Assembly: GCF_058153355.1 (NCBI RefSeq) | Contig: NZ_JBLWLY010000002.1 | Strand: one strand, 5' to 3' | DNA from: a plasmid | DNA: 64,000 nucleotides | Part shown: positions 4,687 to 50,237 of the stretch, piece after piece | Layout of the letters: each line of letters opens with the position of its first letter | Numbering within the stretch: position 1 is the stretch's first letter | Notes under the pieces: generated by a model | What the model was told of the DNA's origin: nothing | The model's input: only the letters and a program-made list of their open reading frames with translations | Database searches by the model: none | Program-made: the position numbers and the translations under genes

Positions 4687-6511
4687 AGTCGAGTCAGCCG
4701 GAGAGAATTTCACTCCCCGGCTGCTCACGGAACCGTACGTGACACTCTCGCGTCATACGGCTCTTGATCACTCATTTGATGCACGTAGTAAATACCAGTG
4801 AACAAATAGCTTCGGATACTCCTTCCTTACCAGCGTCAGCTTTCGCTGAGCCTTCCGGTTCGAAAGTCTGTATTTAGACTGCATCCACTTGAGCAGACGT
4901 GACTGCATTGCACTCCACAGTCGATAGTTGAAATTTCTGGACCAGAACTTTCCGTAGTACTCGATCCAGCCTCTCACTATCGCATTGTAGCGCCTCGCAA
5001 AATCCAGCAAACTCTCAGCTGTTGAGCGATGTATACGCCACTTCTTGATTGTTTCTGTTATTTTGCGCATTGCTGCATTTGACGCACCCGGCATGCATTT
5101 TCGGTACAGTTCGCCTTTGAAATTCTTCAGCGTACGCACTTTGAAGTCATATCCGAGAAAGGTGAAACTCGTTGCGACGTTTCTCCTTTTAAACGTGTCA
5201 ATGTAGGCGATATTCGTTTTCCCTGCATTCAGGACCAGCCCGACTTCCGAGAAGCGCTCCGATAACCTGTTCTTCAGCCTTGTTGCATCACTCATTCGTG
5301 AACAATGTACTACAATATCGTCAGCGTACCTCTCAAACGGTACCCCCCGATATTCTCTTTCCATCCACAAATCAAATGCATAGTGAAGGAACAAGTTAGC
5401 AAGTAGTGGACTAATGACCCCGCCCTGCGGAGTGCCTCGTGTTCGGGTTATTAATTCTCCATTTTCACAACTCTGCATTGGCGCTTCCATCCAGCGTCGA
5501 CAGTACAGGATGACCCATTTAGGCATCCCGTGGTGTTCCAGAGCTTTGAGCACCAGATCATGTCTCACATGGTCGAAAAACGCACTGATGTCCACTTCCA
5601 GTATCCAGCTATAACGCCAGCACCGGATGGCACATTGTTTCAGAGCGTCATGAGCTGATTTGCCTGGTCGGTAACCATATGAATCAGCATGGAAAATCGG
5701 GTCAAGCTTTTCTTCCATGAAAAGTTTTATCGCTCCCTGAGCAATTCGATCGGATACTGTTGGGATCCCCAGAATGCGTTCCTTGCCATTCGACTTCGGG
5801 ATCCGTTTTTCCAGCACTGGTGGCGGAAACCATGTTCCCGAACATAGCCGGTTCCAGATCTTGTATAGATTGCCATCACGTTGCTGGTCGAACATTTTCA
5901 AAGTCTGCCCGTCGCATCCGGGGGCTCCCTTGTTGCGACGCACATCCAGATATGATGCCCAGACCAGTGCTTTTGGTATTTCAAATGATTTTCGTTGCAT
6001 CAGTTACGTCATCCCCTTTTGGGTTGTGTCTTCTGCAATGAATGTGATCCCCATCCCTTCGCTCCAGACCCATTACAGATCTTTCATCACTACTACGAAT
6101 GGGTCCGCCCCTGTTTCCCGATACGTGCCGGAAACAGGTTCTCACGTTCCCTGAGATGGTCTGGCCCGGGATCCTGCTGCCTTCACACCGGATGCCGCGC
6201 AGTCAGTAAGCAGGTGTCTTCTGCGCTTATCAGGGGACGGCTGTACGGCCCCATTTTGACATCATCTAAGATTTCGATGCTTCATCGGACAGTTTACTTT
6301 CGTTCAGCTTCCCGAACCCCACGTGACAGTAGATCTCTGCCTTTTCCCGAGTCGCTCACCACCTCATTCCTTAGAATGAAGCAGCACCGGGTCGTTTGGT
6401 CAGTGCTCCTGTAAACCCTGACCGGAGGGCCCACCTCCACCCACCTCAGAGCATGGATAACTTATGCTGCAATTTTCACATTGTTGCCATAAGTACTCCT
6501 TCGTGACACAC
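4687..6511 (-). mobile_element. bacterial group II intron, copy 1
   Basis: 5' GTGTG and 3' ...AC termini; domain V-like hairpin gagccgtatgacgcg...cacgtacggttc after the IEP; interrupts tnpC between codons for GRKNWL and FAGSDSG. Confidence 0.8.
4768..6000 (-). CDS. group II intron-encoded reverse transcriptase/maturase (no endonuclease domain)
   Basis: 410 aa with RT motifs including YADD (RYADDIVV) and a maturase-like C-terminus. Confidence 0.85.
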   Translation of the reverse strand: MQRKSFEIPKALVWASYLDVRRNKGAPGCDGQTLKMFDQQRDGNLYKIWNRLCSGTWFPPPVLEKRIPKSNGKERILGIPTVSDRIAQGAIKLFMEEKLDPIFHADSYGYRPGKSAHDALKQCAIRCWRYSWILEVDISAFFDHVRHDLVLKALEHHGMPKWVILYCRRWMEAPMQSCENGELITRTRGTPQGGVISPLLANLFLHYAFDLWMEREYRGVPFERYADDIVVHCSRMSDATRLKNRLSERFSEVGLVLNAGKTNIAYIDTFKRRNVATSFTFLGYDFKVRTLKNFKGELYRKCMPGASNAAMRKITETIKKWRIHRSTAESLLDFARRYNAIVRGWIEYYGKFWSRNFNYRLWSAMQSRLLKWMQSKYRLSNRKAQRKLTLVRKEYPKLFVHWYLLRASNE

Positions 6512-10973: not shown

Positions 10974-11048
10974 ATGCCCGGAAAAGTTCAAGACTTCTTT
11001 CTGTGCTCACTCCTTCTGCGCATTGTAAGTGCAGGATGGTGTGACTAA
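10974..11048 (+). CDS. tap: Tap/RepA6 leader peptide
   Basis: 24-aa [27 protein letters not shown]; stop overlaps the GTG start of repA1. Confidence 0.75.
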
Positions 11049-11898
11049 TCTTCAACAAACTTATTACCGCCAGGTAAAGAACCCGAATCCGGTGTTCACA
11101 CCCCGTGAAGGTGCCCGGACGCTTCCGTTCTGCGGGAAACTGATGGAAAAGGCGGTGGGCTTCACCTCCCGTTTTGATTTCGCCATTCATGTGGCACATG
11201 CCCGTTCGCTTGGTCTGCGTCGGCGCATGCCACCGGTACTACGTCGCCGGGCCATTGATGCGCTGCTGCAGGGGCTGTGTTTCCACTATGACCCGCTGGC
11301 CAACCGCGTTCAGTGCTCCATCACCACGCTGGCCATTGAGTGCGGACTGGCGACGGAGTCTGATGCCGGAGTACTCTCCATCACCCGAGCCACCCGTGCC
11401 CTGACCTCCCTGGCTGAGCTGGGGCTGATTACCTACCAGACGGAATATGACCCGCTTATCGGGTGCTACATTCCGACCGATATCACGTTCACACCAGCAC
11501 TGTTTGCCGCTCTCGATGTGTCTGAGGTGGCGGTGGCTTCCGCACGCCGCAGTCGTGTGGAATGGGAAAACAGACAGCGCAAGAAGCAGGGACTGGATAC
11601 CCTGGGTATGGATGAACTGATGGCGAAAGCCTGGCGTTTTGTGCGTGAGCGTTTCCGCAGTTACCAGACAGAGCTTAAGTCCCGTGGAATGAAGCGTGCC
11701 CGTGCGCGTCGTGATGCGGACAGGCAGCGTCAGGATATTGTCACCCTGGTGAAACGGCAACTGACGCGTGAAATCTCGGAAGGGCGCTTCACTGCCAGTC
11801 GTGAGGTGGTAAAACGTGAAGTGGAGCGTCGTGTGAAGGAGCGCATGATTCTGTCACGTAACCGTAATTACAGCCGGCTGGCCACAGCCTCCCCCTGA
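11041..11898 (+). CDS. repA1: RepA1 replication initiator (RepFIIA)
   Basis: 285 codons from GTG at 11041; [19 protein letters not shown] and later sequence match IncFII RepA1. Confidence 0.9.
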
Positions 11899-13801: not shown

Positions 13802-14029
13802 ATGCTGAACGTCTTCCGTTCACGGTACTGCTGGACGATGTGGCTGGGTGCGCTGATAACGTCGTTGTTGTTCGTCGCCGCGCACAGCCAGTATCAGAAC
13901 CTGCTGACCCTGGCAGAACTGTTCCTGGTGGGGGTGATTACATCAGCGGCCAGGATCAGAAGTGGTGGCCTGCTGCTGCCGGTATTGCTGCATATGGAAG
14001 CAACCGCGCTGGGTTTACTGTTTGGTTGA
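13802..14029 (+). pseudogene. CPBP/Abi-family intramembrane protease C-terminal fragment
   Basis: 75-aa ORF; family call from memory of the CPBP C-terminal region; a second copy of the same fragment is at 17049..17196. Confidence 0.4.
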
Positions 14030-14121
14030 CAGTTATATTTTTATTAAACATTGCGCGTTAAAGCCTGGTGTGTTTTTTTAGTGGATGTTATATTTAAATA
14101 TAACTTTTATGGAGGTGAAGA

Positions 14122-14379
14122 ATGCATACCACCCGACTGAAGAAGGTTGGCGGCTCAGTTATGCTGACCGTCCCACCGGCACTGCTGAACGCGCTGTCTC
14201 TGGGTACAGATAATGAAGTTGGCATGGTCATTGATAATGGCCGGCTGATTGTTGAGCCGCACAGACGCCAGCAATATTCACTGGCTGAGCTACTGGCACA
14301 GTGTGATCCGAATGCTGAAATATCAGCTGAAGAACGAGAATGGCTGGATGCACCGGCGACTGGTCAGGAGGAAATCTGA
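14122..14379 (+). CDS. pemI: PemI antitoxin, copy 1
   Basis: 85 aa MHTTRLKKVGGSVMLTVPPALL..., PemI/MazE-like. Confidence 0.85.
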   Translation: MHTTRLKKVGGSVMLTVPPALLNALSLGTDNEVGMVIDNGRLIVEPHRRQQYSLAELLAQCDPNAEISAEEREWLDAPATGQEEI

Positions 14380-14380
14380 C

Positions 14381-14713
14381 GTGGAAAGAGGGGAAATCTG
14401 GCTTGTCTCGCTTGATCCTACCGCAGGTCATGAGCAGCAGGGAACGCGGCCGGTGCTGATTGTCACACCGGCGGCCTTTAATCGCGTGACCCGTCTGCCT
14501 GTTGTTGTGCCCGTAACCAGCGGAGGCAATTTTGCCCGCACTGCCGGCTTTGCGGTGTCGTTGGATGGTGTTGGCATACGTACCACAGGTGTTGTGCGTT
14601 GCGATCAACCCCGGACAATTGATATGAAAGCCCGGGGCGGAAAACGACTCGAACGGGTTCCGGAGGCTATCATGAACGAAGTTCTGGGCCGCCTGTCCAC
14701 TATTCTGACTTGA
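14381..14713 (+). CDS. pemK: PemK toxin, copy 1 (GTG start)
   Basis: ERGEIWLVSLDPTAGHEQQGTRPVLIV..., PemK/MazF family; ORF 14249..14713 in track. Confidence 0.85.
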   Translation: MERGEIWLVSLDPTAGHEQQGTRPVLIVTPAAFNRVTRLPVVVPVTSGGNFARTAGFAVSLDGVGIRTTGVVRCDQPRTIDMKARGGKRLERVPEAIMNEVLGRLSTILT

Positions 14714-14978
14714 ACATGGGGGGGTGCCCCTATTAAGTTGTCAAGCATGTTATGACCCCTGCGGGGTATAAAAAGTCCCGTCGCGCATCATGGCGAACAG
14801 AACGTCGCAGCGTCGTCTCGCCAGGGCGATAAGCGCCTGATTGTGTCGTTTTCCCTGACTCATTTTGCGGGTGTAGTAAGCCCTGGAGAGCGGATCCCTG
14901 AGCGCGGCGAAGGCCGACTGTCAACGCCACGATTTTTAACCGTTATTTGCCATTTTCATGCCCGCTAAGATACTTTCG

Positions 14979-16948
<1,970 letters not shown>

Positions 16949-17048: not shown

Positions 17049-17196
17049 ACACAGCCAGTATCAGAACCTGCTGACACTGGCAGAACTGTTCCTGGTGGGG
17101 GTGATTACATCAGCGGCCAGGATCAGAAGTGGTGGCCTGCTGCTGCCGGTATTGCTGCATATGGAAGCAACCACGCTGGGTTTACTGTTTGGTTGA
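17049..17196 (+). pseudogene. CPBP-family protease C-terminal fragment, copy 2, cut by IS21 end
   Basis: same sequence as 13877..14029 beginning exactly at the IS21 terminus. Confidence 0.4.
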
Positions 17197-17288
17197 AAGT
17201 TATATTTTTATTAAACATTGAGCGTTAAAGCCTGGTGTGTTTTTTTAGTGGATGTTATATTTAAATATAACTTTTATGGAGGTGAAGA

Positions 17289-17546
17289 ATGCATACCACC
17301 CGACTGAAGAAGGTTGGTGGCTCTGTTATGCTGACCGTCCCACCGGCACTGCTGAATGCGCTGTCTCTGGGTACAGATAATGAAGTTGGCATAGTCATTG
17401 ATAATGGCCGGCTGATTGTTGAGCCGCACAGACGCCCGCAATATTCACTGGCTGAGCTACTGGCACAGTGTGATCCGAATGCTGAAATATCAGCTAAAGA
17501 ACGAGAATGGCTGGATGCACCGGCGACTGGTCAGGAGGAAATCTGA
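17289..17546 (+). CDS. pemI: PemI antitoxin, copy 2
   Basis: 85 aa; three substitutions relative to copy 1. Confidence 0.85.
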   Translation: MHTTRLKKVGGSVMLTVPPALLNALSLGTDNEVGIVIDNGRLIVEPHRRPQYSLAELLAQCDPNAEISAKEREWLDAPATGQEEI

Positions 17547-17547
17547 C

Positions 17548-17880
17548 ATGGAAAGAGGGGAAATCTGGCTTGTCTCGCTTGATCCTACCGCAGGTCATGA
17601 GCAGCAGGGAACGCGGCCGGTGCTGATTGTCACACCGGCGGCCTTTAATCGCGTGACCCGCCTGCCTGTTGTTGTGCCCGTAACCAGCGGAGGCAATTTT
17701 GCCCGCACTGCCGGCTTTGCGGTGTCGTTGGATGGTGTTGGCATACGTACCACAGGTGTTGTGCGTTGCGATCAACCCCGGACAATTGATATGAAAGCCC
17801 GGGGCGGAAAACGACTCGAACGGGTTCCAGAGACTATCATGAACGAAGTTCTTGGCCGTCTGTCCACTATTCTAACTTGA
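17548..17880 (+). CDS. pemK: PemK toxin, copy 2 (ATG start)
   Basis: MERGEIWLVSLDPTAG...; ORF 17416..17880 in track. Confidence 0.85.
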   Translation: MERGEIWLVSLDPTAGHEQQGTRPVLIVTPAAFNRVTRLPVVVPVTSGGNFARTAGFAVSLDGVGIRTTGVVRCDQPRTIDMKARGGKRLERVPETIMNEVLGRLSTILT

Positions 17881-18184
17881 ACATGGGGTTTGAGGGACAA
17901 CCGGACGAAAACGTTCGATTTAGGGCACTAAAACCGCTGCTGTTCCCTCATTCAGTGACTGCCCCAGGTTTTTTTCATGCTCTCCAAGATAGGTGTTTCT
18001 GGGCTCTGTTTGGGAAACGTAATCCTATCACACATTTACACCACTGAATTAGATTTCGATTGTGGAGTAATATCTTTAGTAAATAAATTTAGTCTTTCTT
18101 TTTCAGTTGAGAAAATATATCTCTTGGCTTGGGTTGCATTTTTCTTACTAATTAAGTCTGATATATGTTGTGGAGTATTTATTG

Positions 18185-18541
18185 TCAATTACCAAGTGGG
18201 TAGTATTTATGTGTGAAATAGTTATTTCTTGAAGCATTTTTATGACATAAAACTCCTTTAATATACTCTTTCCTTTTATAAAAAAGATGCATTCCGACTA
18301 CAAAACTTGGATATAAATCCTCTAGTGTCTTAAAAAGATCCTCAATGAAGTTGTTTTTACTATCATCAATATAAATAGTGTGCCTGTACATTTGGCCACA
18401 AATTTTTGTGGCATTAAGAGGAACAATTCTTTCTTTTATTTGCTTCTTGCTAGCGTCTATTTTAACAAAACCATAAACTGTATCTTTCCCGACATGTGGA
18501 TCTTTAGATGTTATTTTAAACTGTCTGATATAGTCAACCAA
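18185..18541 (-). CDS. hypothetical protein in AT-rich segment
   Basis: 118-aa ORF with ordinary composition; no family recognised. Confidence 0.35.
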   Translation of the reverse strand: MVDYIRQFKITSKDPHVGKDTVYGFVKIDASKKQIKERIVPLNATKICGQMYRHTIYIDDSKNNFIEDLFKTLEDLYPSFVVGMHLFYKRKEYIKGVLCHKNASRNNYFTHKYYPLGN

Positions 18542-18924
18542 CAGACGTATCGTGTACTAATCATATGGGGGGGCTGTTGGTTGTTTTCCTGCTTCGACAT
18601 AACAAATCTTTCTGGTTCATGTGGTTAAATAACTGTTCATCATACGCCGGAGGAGACTTAACAAAAAATTCCCCTATGTTGCCTCGTGACAGGACGTAGC
18701 TACCAGTGAATGCTGCGCATGGCGGTTTTGGTGTCCGATATCGTACAAAACTTACCCGTCAGCCTATTCATGTATTGCGCCTGTGGCACACACGAGAAAA
18801 CAGGTAGATTGTGTGTGGAGGAAACATGATTCCTTTCGTGTTATACCGCATGTTTTTTCTACTAACATTTTTTATGATAATCTGAATATTCGTAAAAATC
18901 CGATTTTTTAGTATGTATAAAAGA

Positions 18925-18962
18925 AGAGCAGGTAATTGACTGAACCTGCTCTTTTTTATTAT
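18925..18962. terminator. hairpin terminator downstream of parR
   Basis: gagcaggtaattgactgaacctgctc stem with T/A runs on both sides. Confidence 0.5.
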
Positions 18963-19318
18963 TTTTTTAACATAGAAAGATTGCGTCTGGTTTGTTCTTC
19001 GAAATCATCTTTTGAAGTGATGCTCTCTGATTTGTTTTCTGAAGATGCCGCTATGATGTTTTTTAACACACTTATATCAATTGATGTAGATGTGTATCCT
19101 GTTGTTTGCTCTATAAGTTTCACCAGATTTTCTGCAGTGATTTTCTCACTGAAAAAACCACTGATTAGCGTTAACAGTCGGGGGTCAACAGAATAAAGAG
19201 CTGCTCCGCAAATAAGAGATTGTCTGTAGAAGTCTCCCCGCATTTGTATCGGGAGAGAGTCTATTGTTTGTTGTGTCAGGTTATCCTGCGGATAAAGTGT
19301 CGGGTGCAGGTATGCCAC
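18959..19318 (-). CDS. parR: ParR/StbB-like partition adaptor
   Basis: 119 aa immediately downstream of the parM-like gene; ParR-like size and position. Confidence 0.6.
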   Translation of the reverse strand: MAYLHPTLYPQDNLTQQTIDSLPIQMRGDFYRQSLICGAALYSVDPRLLTLISGFFSEKITAENLVKLIEQTTGYTSTSIDISVLKNIIAASSENKSESITSKDDFEEQTRRNLSMLKK

Positions 19319-19349
19319 AACTTTCTTTTTTTCGGATCACTGCTTTCCA

Positions 19350-20238
19350 TTACGCATGCACCATTGCTTTCACCAATGCAAACTGAGGTTCATCCACCTT
19401 GTTCACTTTCAGATTCGGGAAATATTGCTTTATGTGAGGGTAAATAAGCTCGGCTCCCCCGCCTGTGAGGTAGATTCGGTTCATTCCTGAGAATGTTGAA
19501 ATTTCCTGCCTGATGCTTTCTGCCAGAGATTTCACCTCACTGTCTATTACATGAGTAATATTTTTTATTTCAGCCACATCATTTATTAATGTCTGGAGAT
19601 ATTCATTATCATGCCTGTTTTTTATTAACTCATCAGCAATAAAATAATTGCAGGGTGTGGAGGCTTTTGTTAGTGCATTCATGACGGTATGAGTTATGCG
19701 GGATGTCCCGATTTCTGAATTGCCACGGATTTCAGAAATGCCTTCAAATGCACCGAGAATTAAACCACAATCCAGAGTGGTTCCTCCAAGATCGATAATC
19801 AGGCTGCGTTCAAGTTTGTTTACTTTATCTTTTTTTAGTGATTCAAATGCAGCCGGCAAAGATTCAGGCATTACATTAACTTTTTTAATTTTAAATGTTT
19901 CCCCTTTATTCAGAGATATCTCACGGAGAACATTTGCCTTTTTTCTTTCTATTCTTTCTTCATTTGGTTGATTGTCATTATCAAAGAATTCGGTTACAGG
20001 TAATGTTACTGTCAGTTCTACATCCTGTGGCTGAAGGCCGGATGTCAGCAGTGCTGCCCAAATCATAGGTGTATTTTTTTCCATCCACGACGTAATTGTA
20101 AACTTTGCCGGCATTAAACAGTCCCGGGTTCCAGCCTTCTTTAAAGCTGTTTCCTGACAGACTGGTTCTTACCTCGCCATCTTCAAGCCAGGCCAGTTTT
20201 ACGTTAGTTGAACCATCATCGCATGATACTTTTAGCAT
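19350..20238 (-). pseudogene. parM: ParM/StbA actin-like partition ATPase, frameshifted
   Basis: N-terminal part (ORF 19981..20283, CDDGSTNVKLAW) and C-terminal part (ORF 19350..20114, IIDLGGTTLD) are in different frames. Confidence 0.7.
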
Positions 20239-20284
20239 TCTTTTTGCCTCGTTTTGAGTTTGTGTTTGTCTCAAATTGAGCATC

Positions 20285-20400
20285 CTTTATGTCGATGCAT
20301 CTTTTTGAGTTTTTGTTATTTCTTATTGTGACTCAATTTGAGTTCTTGTTGGTTTCTCATTTTGCGTCACAAACTGAGACGGAAACTACTTAACCAGGCC
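20285..20400. promoter_or_regulatory. parC: parC-like centromere/promoter repeats (approximate)
   Basis: repeated ttgag/tcaa motifs directly upstream of parM. Confidence 0.4.
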
Positions 20401-20589
20401 GTGCCGGCACGTTAACCGGGCTGCATCCGATGCAAGTGTGTCGCTGTCGCCGGCCTCCTCACCCGGTCACGTTTCGTCGTTCCTCCTCCACGCGCTGCGG
20501 CTTCGGGGCCGCACCTGCATTCGTATGCGGTCGCCCGGTTACAGGTGCGGCACGGCCTGATGGAGGCCGCATGTGAGAGGAGAATTCCC

Positions 20590-21516
20590 ATGCCAAACTG
20601 GTGCTCGAATCGTATGTATTTTTCTGGTGAACCAGCACAGATTGCTGCGATTAAACGACTGGCCAGCGGTGCAGTCACACCGCTTTATCGCCGCGCCACA
20701 AATGAAGGTATTCAGCTGTTTCTGGCCGGAAGTGCCGGACTTCTGCAGACCACTGAAGATGTGCAGTTTGAACCGTGCCCCGGACTGACGGCTGCCGGAC
20801 GTGGTGTTGTATCGCCGGAGAATATCGCGTTCACCCGCTGGCTGACACACCTGCAGAACGGTGTGCTACTGGATGAACAAAACTGCCTGATGCTGCATGA
20901 ACTCTGGCTGCAGAGTGGTACTGGCCAGCGTCGCTGGGAAGGATTACCGGATGAGGTCAGGGAAACCATCACCGTGCATTTCACCGCCAAAAGAGGTGAC
21001 TGGTGTGGCTTCTGGAGTAACGAGGATGTATCGGTGTGGTGGAACCGTCTGTGTGACAATGTACTGCCGGAAAAAAACATGCCGTTTGACCTGTTGACGG
21101 TTCTGCCCACCCGCCTGGATGTTGAAGTGAATGGCTTTAACGGTGGTGTTCTGAACGGTGTTCCTTCTGCGTATCACTGGTATACGGAACAGTATGGCGT
21201 GAAGTGGCCTGTGGGGTATGAGGTGAATATCAGCCGTCAGGGAGAAAACTTCATTCAGGTGGATTTCGACACGCCGTGGTGTCAGCCGGAAAGCAACGTT
21301 GTTGCAGAATTAAGCCGCCGTTTCGGCTGCACGCTGGAGCACTGGTACGCCGAACAGGGCTGCAATTTCTGTGGCTGGCAGCGATATGAGCGTGGAGAGC
21401 TTGTTGATGTGCTGTGGGGGGAACTGGAATGGTCTTCCCCGACAGATGATGATGAGCTGCCGGAAGTCACCGCGCCGGAGTGGATAGTCGACAAGGTGGC
21501 GCATTACGGGGGATGA
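20590..21516 (+). CDS. hypothetical protein, likely conserved plasmid backbone gene
   Basis: ORF 20545..21516; probable start MPNWCSNRMYF at 20590; family not identified. Confidence 0.55.
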   Translation: MPNWCSNRMYFSGEPAQIAAIKRLASGAVTPLYRRATNEGIQLFLAGSAGLLQTTEDVQFEPCPGLTAAGRGVVSPENIAFTRWLTHLQNGVLLDEQNCLMLHELWLQSGTGQRRWEGLPDEVRETITVHFTAKRGDWCGFWSNEDVSVWWNRLCDNVLPEKNMPFDLLTVLPTRLDVEVNGFNGGVLNGVPSAYHWYTEQYGVKWPVGYEVNISRQGENFIQVDFDTPWCQPESNVVAELSRRFGCTLEHWYAEQGCNFCGWQRYERGELVDVLWGELEWSSPTDDDELPEVTAPEWIVDKVAHYGG

Positions 21517-21899
21517 AGTATGACGGAGACGGGCGGGCAACCGCCCGTTTCTTTTCCGACAAAGGATGTCGCCGTGCTCCTCTTTTTACTGCGCCGGCTG
21601 ACGCGGCGCGGCATAAACGCTGCCTGTGGTCAGTGTCCCGCGTCCGGCGGGCACGGGACGGGCGCTTTACCGCTCCGGGCTGGCGTCGGTGACAGTGTAC
21701 GCCAGCCCGTCGCCCTGTTCTGATGAACGCCCTTCAAGCCGCTTTCTCGGCATAACCTTGCCGTCAGAAAGACGACGGCTGCGGTATTCCACGGTCGGTC
21801 TGACCCGTTACCGGACGCGGTGAACAGCCCACAGGCAGCGGGGAACGGGCACCACAGGGGTGCCCTCCCGGTGCCCTCTGTAAGAGAAGGAGCGTTGTT

Positions 21900-22583
21900 A
21901 TGTCCCGTTTTGTCCTTGGTAACTGCATCGATGTTATGACGCGTATCCCTGATAACGCCATTGATTTCATATTAACTGACCCGCCATATCTCGTCGGTTT
22001 TCGTGACCGTTCCGGGCGCACCATCGCCGGAGATAAAACCGATGAATGGCTGCAACCGGCCTGTAATGAAATGTACCGCGTGCTGAAAAAAGATGCGCTG
22101 ATGGTGAGCTTCTATGGCTGGAACCGCGTCGATCGCTTTATGGCCGCCTGGAAAAATGCGGGATTCAGCGTGGTTGGCCACCTGGTATTTACCAAAACCT
22201 ACACATCGAAGGTCGCATATGTGGGCTATCGCCACGAATGCGCTTACATCCTGGCAAAAGGGCGTCCGGCGCTGCCTCAGAAGCCATTGCCCGACGTGCT
22301 GGGCTGGAAATATTCAGGCAACCGCCATCACCCGACGGAAAAGCCCGTTACCAGCCTGCAACCGCTCATTGAGAGCTTCACACACCCGAACGCGATTGTG
22401 CTGGACCCGTTTGCAGGCAGCGGCTCAACCTGCGTCGCCGCCCTCCAGTCCGGACGCCGGTATATCGGTATCGAGTTGCTTGAGCAGTATCACCGTGCCG
22501 GGCTGCAACGCCTTGCCGCCGTGCAGCGGGCCATGCAGCAGGGGGCCGCGAATGATAACTGGTTTGAACCGGAGGCGGCGTAA
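21900..22583 (+). CDS. orphan DNA methyltransferase (N6-adenine/N4-cytosine type)
   Basis: 227 aa with DPPY motif (LTDPPYLVGF) and SAM-binding-like FAGSGST; no adjacent restriction gene seen. Confidence 0.8.
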   Translation: MSRFVLGNCIDVMTRIPDNAIDFILTDPPYLVGFRDRSGRTIAGDKTDEWLQPACNEMYRVLKKDALMVSFYGWNRVDRFMAAWKNAGFSVVGHLVFTKTYTSKVAYVGYRHECAYILAKGRPALPQKPLPDVLGWKYSGNRHHPTEKPVTSLQPLIESFTHPNAIVLDPFAGSGSTCVAALQSGRRYIGIELLEQYHRAGLQRLAAVQRAMQQGAANDNWFEPEAA

Positions 22584-22805
22584 ATGAACTATGCCGGACA
22601 CGAAAAACTTCGCGCCGAAGTGGCGGAGGTGGCCAACACCATGTGTGACCTTCGGGCCAGGCTGAACGATATGGAGCATCGCTGTCGCTTTGATTCCGAT
22701 GTGCTTGTTGAACGCCTGACACGCCAGACGCTGTATCGCGCCAATCGCCTGTTCATGGAGGCATATACCGAAATTCTGGAACTGGATTCCTGCTTCAAAG
22801 ATTGA
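22584..22805 (+). CDS. hypothetical protein
   Basis: 73-aa ORF immediately after the methyltransferase gene. Confidence 0.4.
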   Translation: MNYAGHEKLRAEVAEVANTMCDLRARLNDMEHRCRFDSDVLVERLTRQTLYRANRLFMEAYTEILELDSCFKD

Positions 22806-23251
22806 GGGGAGAGAGTATGTACGGAACATGCGAAACGCTCTGCCGGGAGCTGGCAGCAAAGTATCCGGGAGACACGCCGTTGATGCTGGTTGTCTGGTCC
22901 CCGGAAGAGATTCAGGCCCTCGCTGACGGAATGGATATTTCCCTGTCCGATCATGAAATCAGGACCGTCCTGGCGCGCCTGGAGGACATCCCGGAAGACC
23001 AGCGAATTGAGTCCGGTATTTCTTCCTCCGCGGCGATGGAGATTATCAGCAACGTGAGCGAAAACCGCCAGGTGACCGTCCCTGCTGAACTGCTGGCGTC
23101 CCTGATTCAGACCGCTGAACAGGCATTGTGGAAGCGTGAATGGGCCGCCCGTGATTACGGCCTCGCCGTCCCGGAATGCGTTACCCGCCGTCAGGCGGTG
23201 GTTAATCAGGCCCGCATCCTGCTGAAAAACAACACGCACGAAAACGACTGA
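22802..23251 (+). CDS. hypothetical protein
   Basis: 149-aa ORF; start overlaps the upstream stop. Confidence 0.5.
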   Translation: MRGESMYGTCETLCRELAAKYPGDTPLMLVVWSPEEIQALADGMDISLSDHEIRTVLARLEDIPEDQRIESGISSSAAMEIISNVSENRQVTVPAELLASLIQTAEQALWKREWAARDYGLAVPECVTRRQAVVNQARILLKNNTHEND

Positions 23252-23296
23252 TGTTATCGCCGCCTGCGGGCGGCGATACAGGGAGAACGATTAATC

Positions 23297-24073
23297 ATGA
23301 ACGAAAACACAACGCTGAATGCACTGATTTGTCGTCACGCCCGAGACCTGCTGCTGGCGCAGGGCTGGCCGGAAGAGACGGATGTTGACCAGCGGAACCC
23401 GAAGTATCCGGGCTGGATCAGCATTTATGTTCTGCTGGATGCGCCCCGGCTGGCGACGTTACTTATCAACCGTCACGGCGGCGCACTGCCGCCACTCCTG
23501 GCCTCCGCCATTCACAAACTGACCGGAACCGGGGCGGAACTTGTACTGTCCGGCAGTCAGTGGCAGTCGCTGCCGGTACTTCCGGCAGACGGAACGCAGG
23601 TGTCTTTCCCGTATGCCGGTGAGTGGCTGGCAGAGGATGAAATCAGGGCAGTTCTTGATGCGGTACGCGATGCAGTACGCTGTGTCAGTTACCAGGTGGC
23701 AGAAGATACGCGGCGTATCCGGGCGGCGCTGACCACAACCGGTCAGACGTTACTGACCCGCCAGACGCGCCGCTTTCGCCTGGTCGTGAAGGAAAGCGAT
23801 CACCCCTGCTGGCTCGATGAGGACGACGAAAACCTGCCCGTGGTGCTCGATGCCATCCTGAACCGGGGCGCACGTTTTTCGGCGGTGGAAATGTATCTGG
23901 TCAGCGATTGTATTGAGCATATCCTGTCCAGTGGGCTGGCCTGCGATGTGCTGCGTATACCGGATGAACCGCCCCGCCGGTGGTTTGACCGTGGTGTTCT
24001 GCGGGAGGTGGTCCGGGAAGCCCGGGCCGAAATTCGCAGCATGGCGGATGCCCTGGCAAAAATCCGGAAATGA
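23297..24073 (+). CDS. hypothetical protein
   Basis: 258-aa ORF, same strand as the preceding block. Confidence 0.5.
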
Positions 24074-24375
24074 TGACGATGGCGGGGAAAATCTATGGTC
24101 ACCCCCGTTTTTGCAACACTGATTTTTGATTAATGGTGGGCTTGCTTAAATCTATCCGGCGTCTCTGTGGGCAAGGGATGCCCGCGCCTCGATGAGTTCC
24201 GCACCTGATAATCCTAAAAATCCCCTCGGCTTCAGTGAGCCATTTTCCCCTGTTAGGTTTTTAATCAGGTCGATTTGCCGTTCATGTCATCAATAATCAA
24301 TCTTCGCAAAACCAGACGGTAACTTGTATCTTATTGTTTGCAATAAGCTAATTGAGTTTTGTCAGCATCTATATA

Positions 24376-25266
24376 TCAGGCCTGATATTCTTTTTGCTGA
24401 GTAGTGATTGCCCAGGCAATTCGGGCCAGTTTATTTGCCAGAGCGCAGGCAACCACATTCGAATGCTTCTTGTTGAGTTGCTCCCGAACCCACTCAGCAA
24501 GTTTTCCATGCTGGCGTTCAAGCTGCATCATGAATGAGCGGGCACACTGAACCAGTAACCGGCGTAAATTTTTATCACCTCGCTTACTGATACCCAACAG
24601 AGTCGATTTTCCTCCAGTGCTATACTGCCGGGGAACGAGCCCTGTGGAAGCCGCAAAATCTCTGCTGCATGAAAACAGTTTCCCGTCACCAAGTTGCGAC
24701 GATAGTAAGCTGGCAGTAATCGGCCCAACACCAGGAATTGTCATAATGCGCTGAGCGGTATCATCAGCGTTGATTGACTGACTTAATTCTGATTCCAGCT
24801 CTGCTATTTGCTCAACAAGGTAAAGGTAGTGGGTATGCAACCTCACCAAAAGGCGGCTCAGATATTCGGGGATTTCGTGTTCAGCCAATACGAGAGACAA
24901 CCGTTTTATTACGGCATCCCCTGTCGGCAGGCTGATTCCAAATTCCAGCAGGAAACCGTGGATCTGGTTGGTTGTTTTCACCTTATCTCTGATGAGCGAT
25001 TCTCTGACCCGGTGTAATGCCCTCATTGCCTGCTGGGTCTCAGTTCTTGGTTGGACAAAACGCATTGATGGTCGTGAAGCCGCTTCACATATGGCTTCTG
25101 CATCAACAAAATCATTCTTATTACTTTTGACAAACGGGCGAACGAACTGTGGAGAAATCAGCTTAGTTTCATGTCCAAAATCAGAGATACGGCGAGCCAA
25201 AAAGTGTGCACCCGCACAGGCTTCCATTACAACAACTGAGGGCGGACATGTTGCCAGAAACTGCAT
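24376..25266 (-). CDS. IS110-family transposase; 5' end overlapped by IS66 terminal repeat
   Basis: 296-aa ORF; upstream in frame to about 25365 encodes YLIGIDLGKHSFHIH but no start codon is left. Confidence 0.7.
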   Translation of the reverse strand: MQFLATCPPSVVVMEACAGAHFLARRISDFGHETKLISPQFVRPFVKSNKNDFVDAEAICEAASRPSMRFVQPRTETQQAMRALHRVRESLIRDKVKTTNQIHGFLLEFGISLPTGDAVIKRLSLVLAEHEIPEYLSRLLVRLHTHYLYLVEQIAELESELSQSINADDTAQRIMTIPGVGPITASLLSSQLGDGKLFSCSRDFAASTGLVPRQYSTGGKSTLLGISKRGDKNLRRLLVQCARSFMMQLERQHGKLAEWVREQLNKKHSNVVACALANKLARIAWAITTQQKEYQA

Positions 25267-25451
25267 CAGTTTAGTACGGGTAAATTTTTTACGCAGAAGA
25301 GCCTTACCAGACTTGTCTTGACAATGAATGTGGAAGGAATGCTTTCCGAGATCGATACCAATAAGGTAAGCGTAAACTGACCGCCGTATGTAGCCATTAA
25401 GCCTGTATTGGTAACGTAGGTGCCCACCTTTTCAACTAGTGGACACCTGTT

Positions 25452-25871
25452 ATGGAACAGAAAGCATTATCCGCAGAACCCCGCAGATCATTTTCAAATG
25501 AGTTTAAACTTCAAATGGTTAAACTGGCTTCACAACCAGGAGCCTCTGTTGCCCGTATTGCCCGGGAACACGATATCAATGATAACCTGCTGTTCAAATG
25601 GCTCAGGCTCTGGCAGAACGAAGGGCGCATATCGCGGCGTCTTCCGGTAACAACCTCTTCTGACACTGGCGTTGAATTATTACCTGTGGAGATAACGCCG
25701 GATGAGCCGAAAGAACCGGTGGCTGCTCTTACTCCGTCTTTATCTACTCAGACTACAGTTAGTGCCAGCTCCTGCAAGGTGGAGTTCCGTCACGGTAACA
25801 TGACGCTGGAAAATCCTTCACCAGAGCTGCTCACAGTGTTGCTCCGTGAACTGACCGGGAGGGGACGATGA
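25452..25871 (+). CDS. IS66 OrfA
   Basis: 139 aa, IS66 orfA-like (FKLQMVKLASQPGASVARIARE). Confidence 0.8.
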   Translation: MEQKALSAEPRRSFSNEFKLQMVKLASQPGASVARIAREHDINDNLLFKWLRLWQNEGRISRRLPVTTSSDTGVELLPVEITPDEPKEPVAALTPSLSTQTTVSASSCKVEFRHGNMTLENPSPELLTVLLRELTGRGR

Positions 25872-28086: not shown

Positions 28087-29910
28087 GTGTGTCACGAAGG
28101 AGTACTTATGGCAACAATGTGAAAATTGCAGCATAAGTTATCCATGCTCTGAGGTGGGTGGAGGTGGGCCCTCCGGTCAGGGTTTACAGGAGCACTGACC
28201 AAACGACCCGGTGCTGCTTCATTCTAAGGAATGAGGTGGTGAGCGACTCGGGAAAAGGCAGAGATCTACTGTCACGTGGGGTTCGGGAAGCTGAACGAAA
28301 GTAAACTGTCCGATGAAGCATCGAAATCTTAGATGATGTCAAAATGGGGCCGTACAGCCGTCCCCTGATAAGCGCAGAAGACACCTGCTTACTGACTGCG
28401 CGGCATCCGGTGTGAAGGCAGCAGGATCCCGGGCCAGACCATCTCAGGGAACGTGAGAACCTGTTTCCGGCACGTATCGGGAAACAGGGGCGGACCCATT
28501 CGTAGTAGTGATGAAAGATCTGTAATGGGTCTGGAGCGAAGGGATGGGGATCACATTCATTGCAGAAGACACAACCCAAAAGGGGATGACGTAACTGATG
28601 CAACGAAAATCATTTGAAATACCAAAAGCACTGGTCTGGGCATCATATCTGGATGTGCGTCGCAACAAGGGAGCCCCCGGATGCGACGGGCAGACTTTGA
28701 AAATGTTCGACCAGCAACGTGATGGCAATCTATACAAGATCTGGAACCGGCTATGTTCGGGAACATGGTTTCCGCCACCAGTGCTGGAAAAACGGATCCC
28801 GAAGTCGAATGGCAAGGAACGCATTCTGGGGATCCCAACAGTATCCGATCGAATTGCTCAGGGAGCGATAAAACTTTTCATGGAAGAAAAGCTTGACCCG
28901 ATTTTCCATGCTGATTCATATGGTTACCGACCAGGCAAATCAGCTCATGACGCTCTGAAACAATGTGCCATCCGGTGCTGGCGTTATAGCTGGATACTGG
29001 AAGTGGACATCAGTGCGTTTTTCGACCATGTGAGACATGATCTGGTGCTCAAAGCTCTGGAACACCACGGGATGCCTAAATGGGTCATCCTGTACTGTCG
29101 ACGCTGGATGGAAGCGCCAATGCAGAGTTGTGAAAATGGAGAATTAATAACCCGAACACGAGGCACTCCGCAGGGCGGGGTCATTAGTCCACTACTTGCT
29201 AACTTGTTCCTTCACTATGCATTTGATTTGTGGATGGAAAGAGAATATCGGGGGGTACCGTTTGAGAGGTACGCTGACGATATTGTAGTACATTGTTCAC
29301 GAATGAGTGATGCAACAAGGCTGAAGAACAGGTTATCGGAGCGCTTCTCGGAAGTCGGGCTGGTCCTGAATGCAGGGAAAACGAATATCGCCTACATTGA
29401 CACGTTTAAAAGGAGAAACGTCGCAACGAGTTTCACCTTTCTCGGATATGACTTCAAAGTGCGTACGCTGAAGAATTTCAAAGGCGAACTGTACCGAAAA
29501 TGCATGCCGGGTGCGTCAAATGCAGCAATGCGCAAAATAACAGAAACAATCAAGAAGTGGCGTATACATCGCTCAACAGCTGAGAGTTTGCTGGATTTTG
29601 CGAGGCGCTACAATGCGATAGTGAGAGGCTGGATCGAGTACTACGGAAAGTTCTGGTCCAGAAATTTCAACTATCGACTGTGGAGTGCAATGCAGTCACG
29701 TCTGCTCAAGTGGATGCAGTCTAAATACAGACTTTCGAACCGGAAGGCTCAGCGAAAGCTGACGCTGGTAAGGAAGGAGTATCCGAAGCTATTTGTTCAC
29801 TGGTATTTACTACGTGCATCAAATGAGTGATCAAGAGCCGTATGACGCGAGAGTGTCACGTACGGTTCCGTGAGCAGCCGGGGAGTGAAATTCTCTCCGG
29901 CTGACTCGAC
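28087..29910 (+). mobile_element. bacterial group II intron, copy 2
   Basis: same sequence as copy 1 in opposite orientation; begins gtgtg after ...aaaaactggctct and ends ...gactcgac before tcgcgggttctgac. Confidence 0.8.
28598..29830 (+). CDS. group II intron-encoded reverse transcriptase/maturase
   Basis: 410 aa, identical to ORF 4768..6000. Confidence 0.85.
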   Translation: MQRKSFEIPKALVWASYLDVRRNKGAPGCDGQTLKMFDQQRDGNLYKIWNRLCSGTWFPPPVLEKRIPKSNGKERILGIPTVSDRIAQGAIKLFMEEKLDPIFHADSYGYRPGKSAHDALKQCAIRCWRYSWILEVDISAFFDHVRHDLVLKALEHHGMPKWVILYCRRWMEAPMQSCENGELITRTRGTPQGGVISPLLANLFLHYAFDLWMEREYRGVPFERYADDIVVHCSRMSDATRLKNRLSERFSEVGLVLNAGKTNIAYIDTFKRRNVATSFTFLGYDFKVRTLKNFKGELYRKCMPGASNAAMRKITETIKKWRIHRSTAESLLDFARRYNAIVRGWIEYYGKFWSRNFNYRLWSAMQSRLLKWMQSKYRLSNRKAQRKLTLVRKEYPKLFVHWYLLRASNE

Positions 29911-32490: not shown

Positions 32491-33033
32491 GTGAGTATTA
32501 AATATATTGTGTTTATCTCTGCTTTATTAATTTCCAATACGGGAAAGGGGGGCGAACAGCGAGTTGTTTTCAATGTGGATATTGTAGGTTCTGCCTGTCA
32601 TGTGGTGGTGGATGCGGACGGTTTCGGCAACAGTGGCCGACTGATATTCGGGACTTACCGTAAATCCACTGGCGCACCTGTATTGCCACGTGACTTCGTT
32701 GTGCGCTTGTATGAGTCCGGCGCTACGGTTCAAGGGTGTTCAGCCTTTCGAGCGGGGCAGGTCGCAACTCTGGATTTTGGTAACCCGGGCCAGCTGGACG
32801 CAAAGGGAGTGGTCACTCGCGGTGCTGGTGATGGTATTCGCGTGGATGTACGGGCGGTGGATACACAGGCGGATTATCGCGGACGTCTGACTCAGGACAG
32901 TCATTCGGTGAATTACCCGGTGGAGTTTGCTGTTAAGGGACAGTTCCGTTTTCGTGCACAGCCGGTGTTTCCGGTGAACGTGAAGGCAGGGGAATACACA
33001 GGGGCGCTGACCTTTGTGGTCACGTATCAGTAA
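32491..33033 (+). CDS. K88/F4-type minor fimbrial subunit (FaeC-like position)
   Basis: 180-aa ORF immediately upstream of the usher gene; AT-rich promoter region upstream. Confidence 0.55.
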
Positions 33034-33044
33034 CAGAGGAAAGT

Positions 33045-35480
33045 GTGTGTGCAGGAAAGAAGGGGGCAGAGCTGGTTTTGTTCTTGTTTTTTCGTCGGGC
33101 CGCGCTTGCTGTATCAGTCGCTTTCGCCAGTGCCACAGGTGTTGCAGGTGAAAAACTGGATATGTCCTTTATTCGGGGTGGTGCCGGGATTAATCCGGAA
33201 GTCTGGGCAGCGCTGAACGGCAGCTATGCACCGGGACGTTATTTGGTTGACCTGTCCCTGAACGGGAAGGAAGCCGGGAAACAGATACTGGATGTGACAC
33301 CACAGGACAGTGATGAACTGTGCCTGACAGAGGCATGGCTGACGAAGGCCGGGATTTACGTCAGTGCAGATTACTTTCGTGAGGGATATGACGCCACACG
33401 GCAGTGTTATGTGCTGACAAAAGCGCCGTCAGTGAAGGTGGATTTTGATGTTTCCACTCAGAGTCTGGCGCTGTCCCTTCCCCAGAAGGGGCTGGTGAAG
33501 ATGCCGGAGAACGTGGACTGGGATTACGGGACTGGTGCATTTCGCGTGAACTATAACGCGAACGCCAACACCGGCCGGAATAACACCTCGACCTTTGGCT
33601 CGGCAGATCTGAAGGTTAATATTGGGCACTGGGTGGTGAGTTCTTCTGCCTCAGCCAGCGGTGGTGACAGCGGGGATAACTCCGCCACGATAAACGCGTT
33701 CACGGCCACCCGGGCCATCCGCGCACTGAGTGCGGACCTGACGGTCGGGAAAACATCCACCGGGAGCAGTCTGCTGGGCAGTACGGGAACGTACGGAGTG
33801 TCGCTGAGCCGGAACAACAGCATGAAGCCGGGCAATCTGGGGTATACCCCGGTGTTCAGCGGCATTGCGAACGGGGCGTCGAGGGTGACACTGACACAGA
33901 ACGGGCGGTTGCTGCATTCGGAGATGGTGCCGGCAGGTCCGTTCTCCATCACGGATGTGCCGCTGTACACCAGTGGGGATGTGACCATGAAAATCACCGG
34001 CGAGGACGGTCGTGAGCAGACTCAGGTCTTCCCGTTGTCGGTGATGGCCGGGCAGTTAAGCCCGGGACAACACGAGTTCAGCGTGGCAGTCGGTTTGCCT
34101 GACGATGACAGTGACCTGAAAGGCGGCGTGTTTGCGGCGTCATACGGTTACGGTCTGGATGGACTGACGCTGCGCACCGGGGGCGTGTTTAACCGGGACT
34201 GGCAGGGTATTAGCGCCGGGGCTGTCCTGGGGCTGAGTTATCTGGGGGCAGTGTCTGCTGACGGGGCTTATGCCATGGCGAAATACCGTGACGGCAGCCG
34301 CAGCGGAAATAAGGTGCAGTTATCCTGGAGTAAACAACTGGAGATGACGAACACCGGACTGCGGGTGAGCTGGTCACGGCAGAGTGAGGAATATGAGGAC
34401 ATGTCCTCCTTTGACCCGACAGAGCTGTGGTCGCAGTCAAATCATGGTCGCCGGCCGAAGGATGAATGGAATGCCGGTATCAGTCAGTCGGTGGGGGGGC
34501 TGTTCAGTCTGTCGGTGTCCGGCTGGCAGCGGAGTTATTACCCGGCACAGATGACGGGCCGTTATCGGTACAGCGATGACAATGGTCTGGACACAGGGAT
34601 TACCGGTACCCTGAGCACACAGATTAAGGGCGTCAGTCTGAATCTGGGCTGGTCCGGCTCACGGAATTCGCAGGGAGAGAATAACAGGTCGGCGTCAGCC
34701 TCTATCTCGGTGCCATTCACGCTGTTTGAGCGTCGCTACAGCAGCAGTACGTCGGTGAGTACCAGCAAAGGCGGTGGCACGGGCTTCAGCACTGGCGTGT
34801 CCGGCTCGCTGAATGACCGTTTCAGCTATGGCTTGGGCGGCGGTCGTGATAGCGGTGGTGGTGTGAGTAGTTATCTAAACGCGTCGTACAGTGGTGACCG
34901 GGCTTATCTGAATGGTGCCCTGAACCACTCACAGTCCGGCGGAACCAGTGGTTCTGTATCAGTCAGCGGTTCGGTACTGGTCGTCCCGACGGCGAAAGAC
35001 ATTATGTTCAGCCGCACGACCGGGGACACCGTGGCCGTGGTGAACGTGAAGGATACACCGGGTGTGAAGGTGACGTTCGGTGACGGACAGACTGACAGCG
35101 ACGGCAACCTGGTGGTACCGCTGAACAGCTATGACTGGAACACGGTGACGATTGATGCGGGCACACTGCCGCTGAGCACCGAACTGACGAACACCAGTCA
35201 GAAGGTGGTGCCGACGGACAAGGCGGTGGTCTGGATGCCGTTTGATGCCCTGAAAGTCAAGCGTTACCTGCTGCAGGTGAAGCAGCGTGACGGTGAGTTT
35301 GTGCCAGGGGGAACCTGGGCACGTGACAGTAAGAACACACCGCTGGGCTTTGTAGCTAACAATGGTGTGCTGATGATTAACACGGTGGATGCGCCGGGTG
35401 ATATCACCCTAGGCCAGTGCCGGATACCTGCGGCCAGACTGCAGGATACTGAGAAACTACAGGAGATTACGTGTGAGTAA
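33045..35480 (+). CDS. fimbrial outer-membrane usher (FaeD-like)
   Basis: 811-aa ORF, usher-sized, between subunit and chaperone genes. Confidence 0.85.
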   Translation: MCAGKKGAELVLFLFFRRAALAVSVAFASATGVAGEKLDMSFIRGGAGINPEVWAALNGSYAPGRYLVDLSLNGKEAGKQILDVTPQDSDELCLTEAWLTKAGIYVSADYFREGYDATRQCYVLTKAPSVKVDFDVSTQSLALSLPQKGLVKMPENVDWDYGTGAFRVNYNANANTGRNNTSTFGSADLKVNIGHWVVSSSASASGGDSGDNSATINAFTATRAIRALSADLTVGKTSTGSSLLGSTGTYGVSLSRNNSMKPGNLGYTPVFSGIANGASRVTLTQNGRLLHSEMVPAGPFSITDVPLYTSGDVTMKITGEDGREQTQVFPLSVMAGQLSPGQHEFSVAVGLPDDDSDLKGGVFAASYGYGLDGLTLRTGGVFNRDWQGISAGAVLGLSYLGAVSADGAYAMAKYRDGSRSGNKVQLSWSKQLEMTNTGLRVSWSRQSEEYEDMSSFDPTELWSQSNHGRRPKDEWNAGISQSVGGLFSLSVSGWQRSYYPAQMTGRYRYSDDNGLDTGITGTLSTQIKGVSLNLGWSGSRNSQGENNRSASASISVPFTLFERRYSSSTSVSTSKGGGTGFSTGVSGSLNDRFSYGLGGGRDSGGGVSSYLNASYSGDRAYLNGALNHSQSGGTSGSVSVSGSVLVVPTAKDIMFSRTTGDTVAVVNVKDTPGVKVTFGDGQTDSDGNLVVPLNSYDWNTVTIDAGTLPLSTELTNTSQKVVPTDKAVVWMPFDALKVKRYLLQVKQRDGEFVPGGTWARDSKNTPLGFVANNGVLMINTVDAPGDITLGQCRIPAARLQDTEKLQEITCE

Positions 35481-36255
35481 GCGTAACGCAGTAACGACGT
35501 TTTTCACTAACCAGGTGACAAAAGCACTGGGAATGACGCTGGCGCTGATGATGAGCTGTCAGAGTGCGGTGGCTTCCCTGGCGGCAGACCAGACCCGCTA
35601 TATCTTTCGCGGGGACAAGGATGCGCTGACCATCACGGTCACCAACAATGACAAGGGACGTACCTTTGGTGGTCAGGCATGGGTGGACAATATCGTGGAG
35701 AAAGACACCCGTCCGACTTTTGTGGTGACGCCGTCCTTCTTCAAGGTGAAGCCGAATGGTCAGCAGACACTGCGTATCATCATGGCCTCGGACCATCTGC
35801 CGAAGGATAAAGAGTCGGTGTACTGGCTGAACCTGCAGGATATTCCGCCGGCTCTGGAGGGCAGCGGTATTGCAGTGGCGCTGCGTACGAAACTGAAACT
35901 GTTCTATCGCCCGAAGGCACTGCTTGAAGGTCGCAAGGGGGCAGAAGAAGGCATCAGTCTGCAGAGCCGCCCGGATGGCAGGACCATGCTGGTGAACACC
36001 ACGCCATACATTTTTGCGATTGGCAGCCTGCTGGACGGAAACGGAAAGAAAATTGCCGCGGATAACGAGACGGCGCAGAAACTGCTGATGTTCATGCCGG
36101 GTGATGAAGTACAGGTGAAGGGAAATGTGGTGAAAGTGGACTCCCTGAATGATTACGGTGAACTGCAGACATGGACGATTAACCAGAAGAAATCAGCAAT
36201 ATCGTCTGCACAGAAGTCATCTGATACAGAGGGTAATTCATCTGATAAAAAATAA
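35473..36255 (+). CDS. periplasmic fimbrial chaperone (FaeE-like)
   Basis: 260 aa with signal peptide; start overlaps usher stop. Confidence 0.8.
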   Translation: MSKRNAVTTFFTNQVTKALGMTLALMMSCQSAVASLAADQTRYIFRGDKDALTITVTNNDKGRTFGGQAWVDNIVEKDTRPTFVVTPSFFKVKPNGQQTLRIIMASDHLPKDKESVYWLNLQDIPPALEGSGIAVALRTKLKLFYRPKALLEGRKGAEEGISLQSRPDGRTMLVNTTPYIFAIGSLLDGNGKKIAADNETAQKLLMFMPGDEVQVKGNVVKVDSLNDYGELQTWTINQKKSAISSAQKSSDTEGNSSDKK

Positions 36256-36289
36256 TCGCCCTCCGGCATACGGAACAGAGGGGTAATAA

Positions 36290-36781
36290 ATGAAGAAAAC
36301 AATGATGGTAGTCGCCTTGGCCCTGAGTGCACTCAGTATTCAGTCAACACTTGCCGCTGAATACAGCGAGAAAGCGCAGTATCTGGGGGTGGTGAATGGC
36401 CAGGTGGTGGGTAACAGCGTGGTGAAGGTAACCCGCACACCGACAGATCCGGTGCTGTACCGGAGTGGAGACACGACGCCTCTTCCCGACCGCCTGACCA
36501 TCCGTAATGCAGAATCCAGAGCAGCATCTGGTGGCTTGGCGTATATCACGGTGAAACAGGTGCTGCCTGATAACGGGGAAGCCCGCATCACCCTGAAGAC
36601 GGCCCTGATGGTTGATGGAAAGAAAGTGGCAATCAGCGCCAGACAGCAGGGTGAGGATATGGTGATAACTTTGCCGGAAGCACAGAAGCAGATTGAATTA
36701 AGAACGGATGCACCGGCAGAGCTGGAAGTACCGGTCAGTTACCGGGGAAATCTGCAGATAGCGCTGCAGGTGGAGGACTGA
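36290..36781 (+). CDS. minor fimbrial subunit (FaeF-like)
   Basis: 163 aa with signal peptide MKKTMMVVALALSALSIQSTLA. Confidence 0.6.
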   Translation: MKKTMMVVALALSALSIQSTLAAEYSEKAQYLGVVNGQVVGNSVVKVTRTPTDPVLYRSGDTTPLPDRLTIRNAESRAASGGLAYITVKQVLPDNGEARITLKTALMVDGKKVAISARQQGEDMVITLPEAQKQIELRTDAPAELEVPVSYRGNLQIALQVED

Positions 36782-36994
36782 GGATTCATTTCCTTTATAA
36801 ATGCAGTACATCCCGTGATTCCGGAGCGGGTCATATTGGTAAAGGGATTTACCGTCTTTTAAAACGGGAATAACGTAAAACAATTCTGAGTTAAACACTG
36901 TGTTTAATGAAATGCGGTTATTTAAATGAATCCGCAGGGGATGGTTTTGCGGTAATTCCGGGGAAATAAGGATTACTGATTCAGTTTATTATTT

Positions 36995-37819: not shown

Positions 37820-38032
37820 TTCAGCAGTGTTCAGCAGTAAGCACTTACCCGTTTACTGCTGATTAAAACTTCAGAACACAGTTTCCGGTGACCCGACCTG
37901 AATATACAGAACCGGTATGTCAGAACAGGTGTTTTTCTGTTGGAGTGTCTTGTGACGCATATTGGTTCTGTGCTTTTTTTAACAAAATTATTTTATTGAG
38001 CTGTTTTGTTTTATCCGGATAAACAGGAATGA

Positions 38033-38836: not shown

Positions 38837-38865
38837 TGGTTGCAGGGATATAAGGAGAGAAGAGA

Positions 38866-50183: not shown

Positions 50184-50237
50184 TGAACAACCACACCGCC
50201 CCGCCGGAGACGGGGCGGCAGCAAGGGAGATACTGTG

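Follow-up and report, generated by a model that had tools for sequence, protein, structure and literature searches.

The locus considered here raises the question of whether a plasmid partition cassette whose actin-like motor gene, parM, is divided between two reading frames could still drive partition, and whether the division is a property of the plasmid or of its assembly. It lies in a stretch of plasmid DNA of 64,000 nucleotides, analysed as a whole and called the window below. The answer that we reach, and that we hold with high confidence, is that the locus is a pseudogenised ParMRC/StbAB cassette, carried by an IS-rich IncFII F-like plasmid related to the pINV plasmids of Shigella and EIEC, in which three deletions at repeat junctions have disabled every component. 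It is an object of a known kind, a real and ordinary pseudogene of a well-characterised family produced by ordinary reductive decay.

The cassette is of type II and occupies positions 18959-20385 of the minus strand in the order parC-like region, parM and parR (Table 1). Window positions 18900-20450 were aligned to the best intact relative, the E. coli plasmid CP056818.1, in which a parM of 960 nt and a parR of 396 nt are annotated. The two are ~98% identical across the cassette, and the alignment opens three gaps in the window, of exactly 71, 4 and 63 bp. Five relatives were compared at these sites, namely an E. coli IncK2/Z plasmid, an S. flexneri pINV, S. dysenteriae pSD1_197, a Salmonella IncFII plasmid and an E. 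marmotae plasmid; all five have the long form at each of the three sites, together with an intact annotated ParM of 319 aa and ParR of 131 aa.

Table 1. Parts of the decayed partition cassette and public assemblies that carry the same allele, in window coordinates.
Feature or assembly	Position	Strand	Length	Description or match	Basis
Shortened parC-like centromere/promoter region	20239..20385	-		Upstream of parM	Box scan and alignments
parM 5' fragment	19981..20238	-		Codons 1-64 authentic, then 21 out-of-frame codons and stop	Translation; Pfam StbA_N
Single kept copy of 9-bp direct repeat CAGCAGTGC	20046..20054	.		Marks the 71-bp deletion junction	Alignments
parM 3' portion	19350..20054	-		Codons about 86-319 and stop; frame differs from that of the 5' fragment	
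parR 5' end	19282..19350	-		Own ATG, 22-codon product	Translation; 4-bp gap
CTTT/AAAG repeat beside A7 run	19321..19332	.		One AAAG unit missing (3 units to 2)	
Rest of parR, 119-aa GTG-initiated ORF	18959..19318	-		Plasmid_stab_B domain; without the N-terminal MESSDPKKRKKV	
SRR31441161 (Logan)	18770-25462		6693 bp	100%, 0 gaps	
SRR8656992 (Logan)	18789-20423		1635 bp	100%	
GCA_015332025.1 (NCBI E. coli draft)	17334-25318		7985 bp	3 mismatches, 0 gaps	

The initial annotation of this DNA placed the two halves of ParM in different frames, and this is borne out by Pfam domain matches that are split over two minus-strand ORFs. Specifically, the ORF at 19981..20283 (-) corresponds to positions 1-66 of the StbA_N profile (E 5.9e-25), and the ORF at 19350..20114 (-) corresponds to StbA_N positions 79-157 (E 1.9e-34) followed by the complete ParM C-terminal domain (E 3.9e-65), values that are far outside chance. 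Both ParM domains are present, not in one frame and with 24 codons missing. The frame switch, previously located around 20035..20060, coincides with the single 71-bp gap relative to CP056818.1, whose junction lies at 20045/20046, and the suspected out-of-frame deletion of about 20 residues turns out to be a loss of 71 nt that takes in codons 65-88, the VIGTTHVSYQYSTTNLLAIHHALL region. Each of the five intact relatives has two copies of CAGCAGTGC, which reads GCACTGCTG on the gene strand, flanking the 71-bp segment. Alignment to R1 ParM, which had been proposed as a check, was made with the CP056818.1 protein; it matches R1 ParM (PDB 1MWK/5AEY) over residues 4-315 (E 1e-80) and spans the missing segment, and the window parM is therefore the derived, deleted state.

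The true start of parM is the minus-strand ATG at 20238 (MLKVSCDDGSTN...) and its stop is at 19350. An in-frame ATG further upstream, at 20283, was considered as the start and set aside as an ORF-finder extension only; ORF-finders also extend the 3' ORF, to an ATG at 20114, and so report an ORF of 254 aa. Translation from the true start gives 64 authentic residues, 21 out-of-frame residues and a stop, a product of 85 aa. This fragment carries the first phosphate-binding motif, but almost the whole actin fold is missing from it, and the ORF downstream is without the N-terminal DDGSTN phosphate-binding motif; a filament-forming ParM therefore appears to have been lost.

The ATG of parR, at 19350-19348, overlaps the parM stop (TAATG). 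On translation the gene shifts frame after codon 10, through a 4-bp loss in the AAAG repeat at codons 10-11, and terminates after 22 codons. All five relatives have three AAAG units here, reading CCG/CCA-A7-8-G-AAAG-AAAG, and the window is short of one. The remainder of the gene, located immediately downstream of parM, is recognisable as an ORF of 119 aa with a match to Plasmid_stab_B (PF10784, E 6.6e-26); it begins at a GTG with a weak Shine-Dalgarno-like sequence, and the basic N-terminus is missing from it, as is part of the first beta-strand. What these would have contributed can be read from the ParR of the intact relative, which aligns to PDB 2JD3 ('StbB protein') over residues 4-120 (E 4e-19). 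The match takes in both the basic N-terminus and the 'YLHP' strand, MESSDPKKRKKV aligning with that N-terminus and the beginning of the first strand. We take 2JD3 to be the ParR of pB171 (par1). Because of the 4-bp deletion, the window parR cannot yield a 2JD3-like N-terminus from its own ATG, and it is the N-terminal beta-strand of ParR that makes up the DNA-binding ribbon of the ribbon-helix-helix fold (PMC5016525). Normal ParR has, by this reasoning, probably gone; some ParR could be made from the 119-aa GTG ORF, or through an occasional -1 slip in the A7 run.

The tract A7-8/(AAAG)3 at parR codons 7-11 resembles a mutational hot spot. A second decayed allele of the locus is found in the E. 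coli draft L009 (GCA_012830635.1, contig AATJBQ010000025.1, 1016-1973). There parM is truncated, a colicin/microcin region having taken the place of its 5' part, and the same A-run has lost 1 bp, which puts parR out of frame. Its 119-aa ParR entry made L009 a candidate for an intermediate allele, which we rejected: with a truncated parM and a 1-bp parR frameshift it is a separately decayed locus.

The third deletion removes 63 bp from parC, and at its junction, at 20325-20328, there are GAGTCACAA-like repeats. The parC of the relative has two imperfect units spaced by 63 bp, of which the window keeps one hybrid unit. Boxes of the form CTC-N5-GAG, a motif with a background frequency of 0.75 per kb in the window, lie at 20248, 20270, 20299, 20332 and 20356, and a sixth, weaker, is at 20368; the window thus has five or six, against eight in the intact relative (five exact and three with one mismatch, in ~180 bp), and two putative ParR boxes, of about seven or eight, went with the deleted segment. 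In the relative, this segment also contains a sigma-70-like TTGACA-16-CATAAT, with 11/12 consensus positions, directed towards parM. The -35 hexamer TTGACA upstream of parM is conserved in five out of five intact relatives and removed in the window, where a promoter scan of the parC region found no comparable promoter-like site, only a CACAAT -10-like hexamer at the junction. Both the parC promoter and the ParR boxes are predictions from consensus and repetition, and on these predictions transcription of the operon would be lost or severely weakened. The statement of the initial annotation that parR and parC remain is therefore not supported: both are recognisable, but both are damaged, parR by the 4-bp frameshift and parC by the loss of 63 bp together with boxes and the -35 hexamer. 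Its further suggestion, that active partition by the locus has been lost, is supported, and given the known roles of ParM, ParR and parC we consider such a loss almost certain.

The account best supported for how this state arose is one of three independent deletions. A 71-bp deletion between the two copies of GCACTGCTG takes out ParM codons 65-88 and shifts the frame; the loss of one AAAG unit shifts the frame of parR after codon 10; and a 63-bp deletion between the GAGTCACAA-like repeats takes out the middle of parC, with it the -35 hexamer and two of the putative ParR boxes. The short direct repeats at each deletion would fit either replication slippage or microhomology-mediated deletion. 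The whole amounts to a stepwise pseudogenisation of a redundant partition system, within a general reductive decay of the plasmid. Private substitutions number five, three in parC, Y197N in parM and G102A in parR, which suggests that the inactivation is recent, and so small a number allows no dating beyond 'recent'.

It is very unlikely, in our estimation, that the cassette retains a function without its motor. On this view, any ParR that starts at the GTG, or arises from a -1 slip on CCG-AAA-AAA-A, would bind the remaining boxes and could act in repression, plasmid pairing or incompatibility, and the lesions in parR and the promoter may even have been selected, if ParR-parC without ParM is harmful. 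The 119-aa ORF is indeed otherwise intact, with one private substitution, five boxes are left in parC, and a -1 shift, as we read the sequence, would give MESSDPKKKKVVAY..., one residue below wild-type length. However, the -35 box is gone, the Shine-Dalgarno-like sequence at the GTG is weak, and part of the ribbon-helix-helix beta-strand with its DNA contacts has been removed (PMC5016525). As to selection, a locus with the inactive StbA(D173E) made a test plasmid less stable at 21 C (PMC6519299), and the second, independent allele is frameshifted in the same tract. We likewise find it very unlikely that the parR and promoter lesions, instead of being neutral, were selected because a motor-less ParR-parC was harmful once ParM had gone (for example by plasmid pairing or clustering, or by incompatibility with the many co-circulating plasmids that share this parC), with A7-(AAAG)3 at codons 7-11 acting as a recurrent slippage hot spot and both alleles rescuable by a -1 shift. 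Neutral decay after a first hit is the simpler account of everything.

If instead the frame break were a sequencing or assembly error, the gene on the real plasmid would be intact. What speaks for this is that the deletions were unseen in ~370 PLSDB plasmids or, for the parM junction only, in 300 complete E. coli genomes. Three junction-spanning queries against PLSDB, where 368-385 records bear the locus, found no record sharing a deletion, the best matches listed spanning the junctions with +71, +63 or +4 bases, and a parM-junction query against complete E. coli genomes, with 301 locus-bearing records, found the 71-bp deletion absent among the matches listed; an exact match in one piece would have headed each ranking. 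However, the exact products of both the 254-aa C-terminal ParM ORF and the 119-aa ParR ORF are recorded in public assemblies, and all three deletions are reproduced, gapless, in three independent public assemblies that were deposited separately (Table 1). One of them carries 3 SNPs and hence represents another genome, and deletions of 71 and 63 bp between direct repeats are atypical of read errors. Resequencing had been proposed as the check for an assembly error, and a single frame is not restored in these records, each of which carries the same split. The three may come from epidemiologically related isolates, though one differs by 3 SNPs. We therefore regard the allele as a real allele of a lineage, with assembly error effectively excluded, and its absence among the matches listed from PLSDB and, at the parM junction, from the complete E. 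coli genomes makes it a rare one. The signature of three deletions could mark the lineage of the carrier isolates.

There is next to no probability that the extra bases of the relatives are insertions or duplications and the short form the ancestral one. The relatives' two 63-bp parC units do look, at 73% identity, like a tandem duplication of old date. However, the residues encoded in the 71-bp segment align to R1 ParM and the frame is broken without it, five diverse relatives are all long at the three sites, and the 4-bp difference breaks the parR frame in the window only.

The window is an IS-rich F-like segment with an IncFII RepA at 11029-11898, many copies of IS66, IS110-family and IS21 elements and two reverse transcriptases of group II introns, and it includes leading-region genes and the beginning of tra. 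Its backbone reaches no more than about 94-96% identity with any PLSDB record, and a PLSDB search with a 24-kb slice returned no record covering more than 44%. The two copies of the group II intron reverse transcriptase/maturase (410 aa), at 4768-6000 (-) and 28598-29830 (+), both lie inside a 2.2-kb inverted repeat of 99.7% identity and are apparently inserted in IS66-family elements. At 32491-42915 there is a fae (F4/K88)-like chaperone-usher fimbrial operon with a PAPS-reductase-like gene and an AraC-family regulator, a region ~98% identical to pINV plasmids of Shigella sonnei/boydii and EIEC. The 64-kb window showed neither T3SS nor vir genes.

With its own cassette disabled, the plasmid would now depend on other maintenance functions. 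A ParA-type Walker box, KGGxGK[ST], is absent from every frame of the window, where the only P-loop found in its place is that of the IS21 IstB. A 652-aa ParB-like ORF was considered as a partition protein and rejected, being a leading-region protein without a ParA partner. No second partition ATPase is visible in the window, and one may lie elsewhere on the plasmid. Beside the dead partition locus there is an 839-bp direct repeat (13883-14721 and 17050-17888, 98% identity) that carries a PemK/ChpB-type toxin gene region, and the pemIK-like copies flank an IS21 (istA/istB, 14979-16948). It is plausible that the two pemIK copies provide a post-segregational-killing back-up. Inheritance of the plasmid may accordingly be attributed to other functions, for example these two adjacent copies or systems outside the window.

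Deletions have also joined genes elsewhere in the window. A 351-aa ORF at 50235-51290 (+) matches the PsiB profile (1-127/144) and then PsiA (4-238/239); related plasmids span 98 bp more at this place, the fusion of psiB and psiA being in frame and made by deletion. Two further fusion ORFs, at 55611-56348 (+) and 57786-58406 (+), read TraJ(1-35)-TraK(51-242) and TraP(1-145)-TrbG(14-83), and imply tra deletions from the 3' end of traJ to the 5' end of traK and from the 3' end of traP to the 5' end of trbG. Given these internal tra deletions the plasmid is probably non-conjugative, and with the psiB-psiA, traJ-traK and traP-trbG fusions alongside it, the decay of the cassette is one part of a wider decay of the plasmid. 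For annotation, the consequence is that all three parts of the cassette are to be labelled as pseudogene or remnant.

Among known systems, the closest family is the pINV StbAB/pB171 par1 type and not R1 itself. The R1 ParMRC system (the parA locus) is alike in having an actin-like ATPase, a ribbon-helix-helix adaptor and an upstream centromere, and its split parC has a counterpart in the intact relatives, with repeats on both sides of a central predicted promoter (PMC5016525). It differs in that R1 has 11-bp iterons in place of CTC-N5-GAG near-palindromes, and in that the window copy is, judging by its sequence, non-functional. StbAB itself has been placed among the ParMR-related type II systems, with identities to R1 of 42.5% for ParM and 23.1% for ParR (McVicker et al., 2019; PMC6519299). 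The Shigella pINV StbAB (pWR100) has the same order of parC-like region, stbA/parM and stbB/parR and the same TAATG overlap, the loci of the S. flexneri and S. dysenteriae pINVs are ~96.4-96.9% identical in DNA to that of the window, and the plasmid background is also similar, being IncFII and IS-rich, with a fae-like fimbrial operon that is ~98% identical. However, the pINV copy is intact, whereas the window copy has frameshifts in both ParM and ParR and the promoter/parC core deleted.

Work on pINV has shown that StbAB stabilises a test plasmid with the pINV replicon about tenfold at 37 C, which the D173E ATPase mutant does not, and that deletion of stbAB from pINV has no measurable effect, StbAB being functional but redundant (PMC6519299). 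The locus was absent from 132 S. sonnei isolates (PMC6519299) and missing in 9/38 S. flexneri pINVs, where it is described as frequently affected by rearrangements (PMC9455713). The same locus is thus dispensable and repeatedly lost in S. sonnei and some S. flexneri pINVs (PMC6519299; PMC9455713), and since L009 has decayed independently as well, loss of the cassette is recurrent and tolerated. The allele described here fits this published dispensability and frequent loss of StbAB, and offers a small, clean example of how a redundant partition system on a pINV-like plasmid may decay stepwise through repeats. Where the losses in S. sonnei and S. flexneri are reported as absence or rearrangement, the cassette of the window is still in place, with three small deletions of the slippage type.
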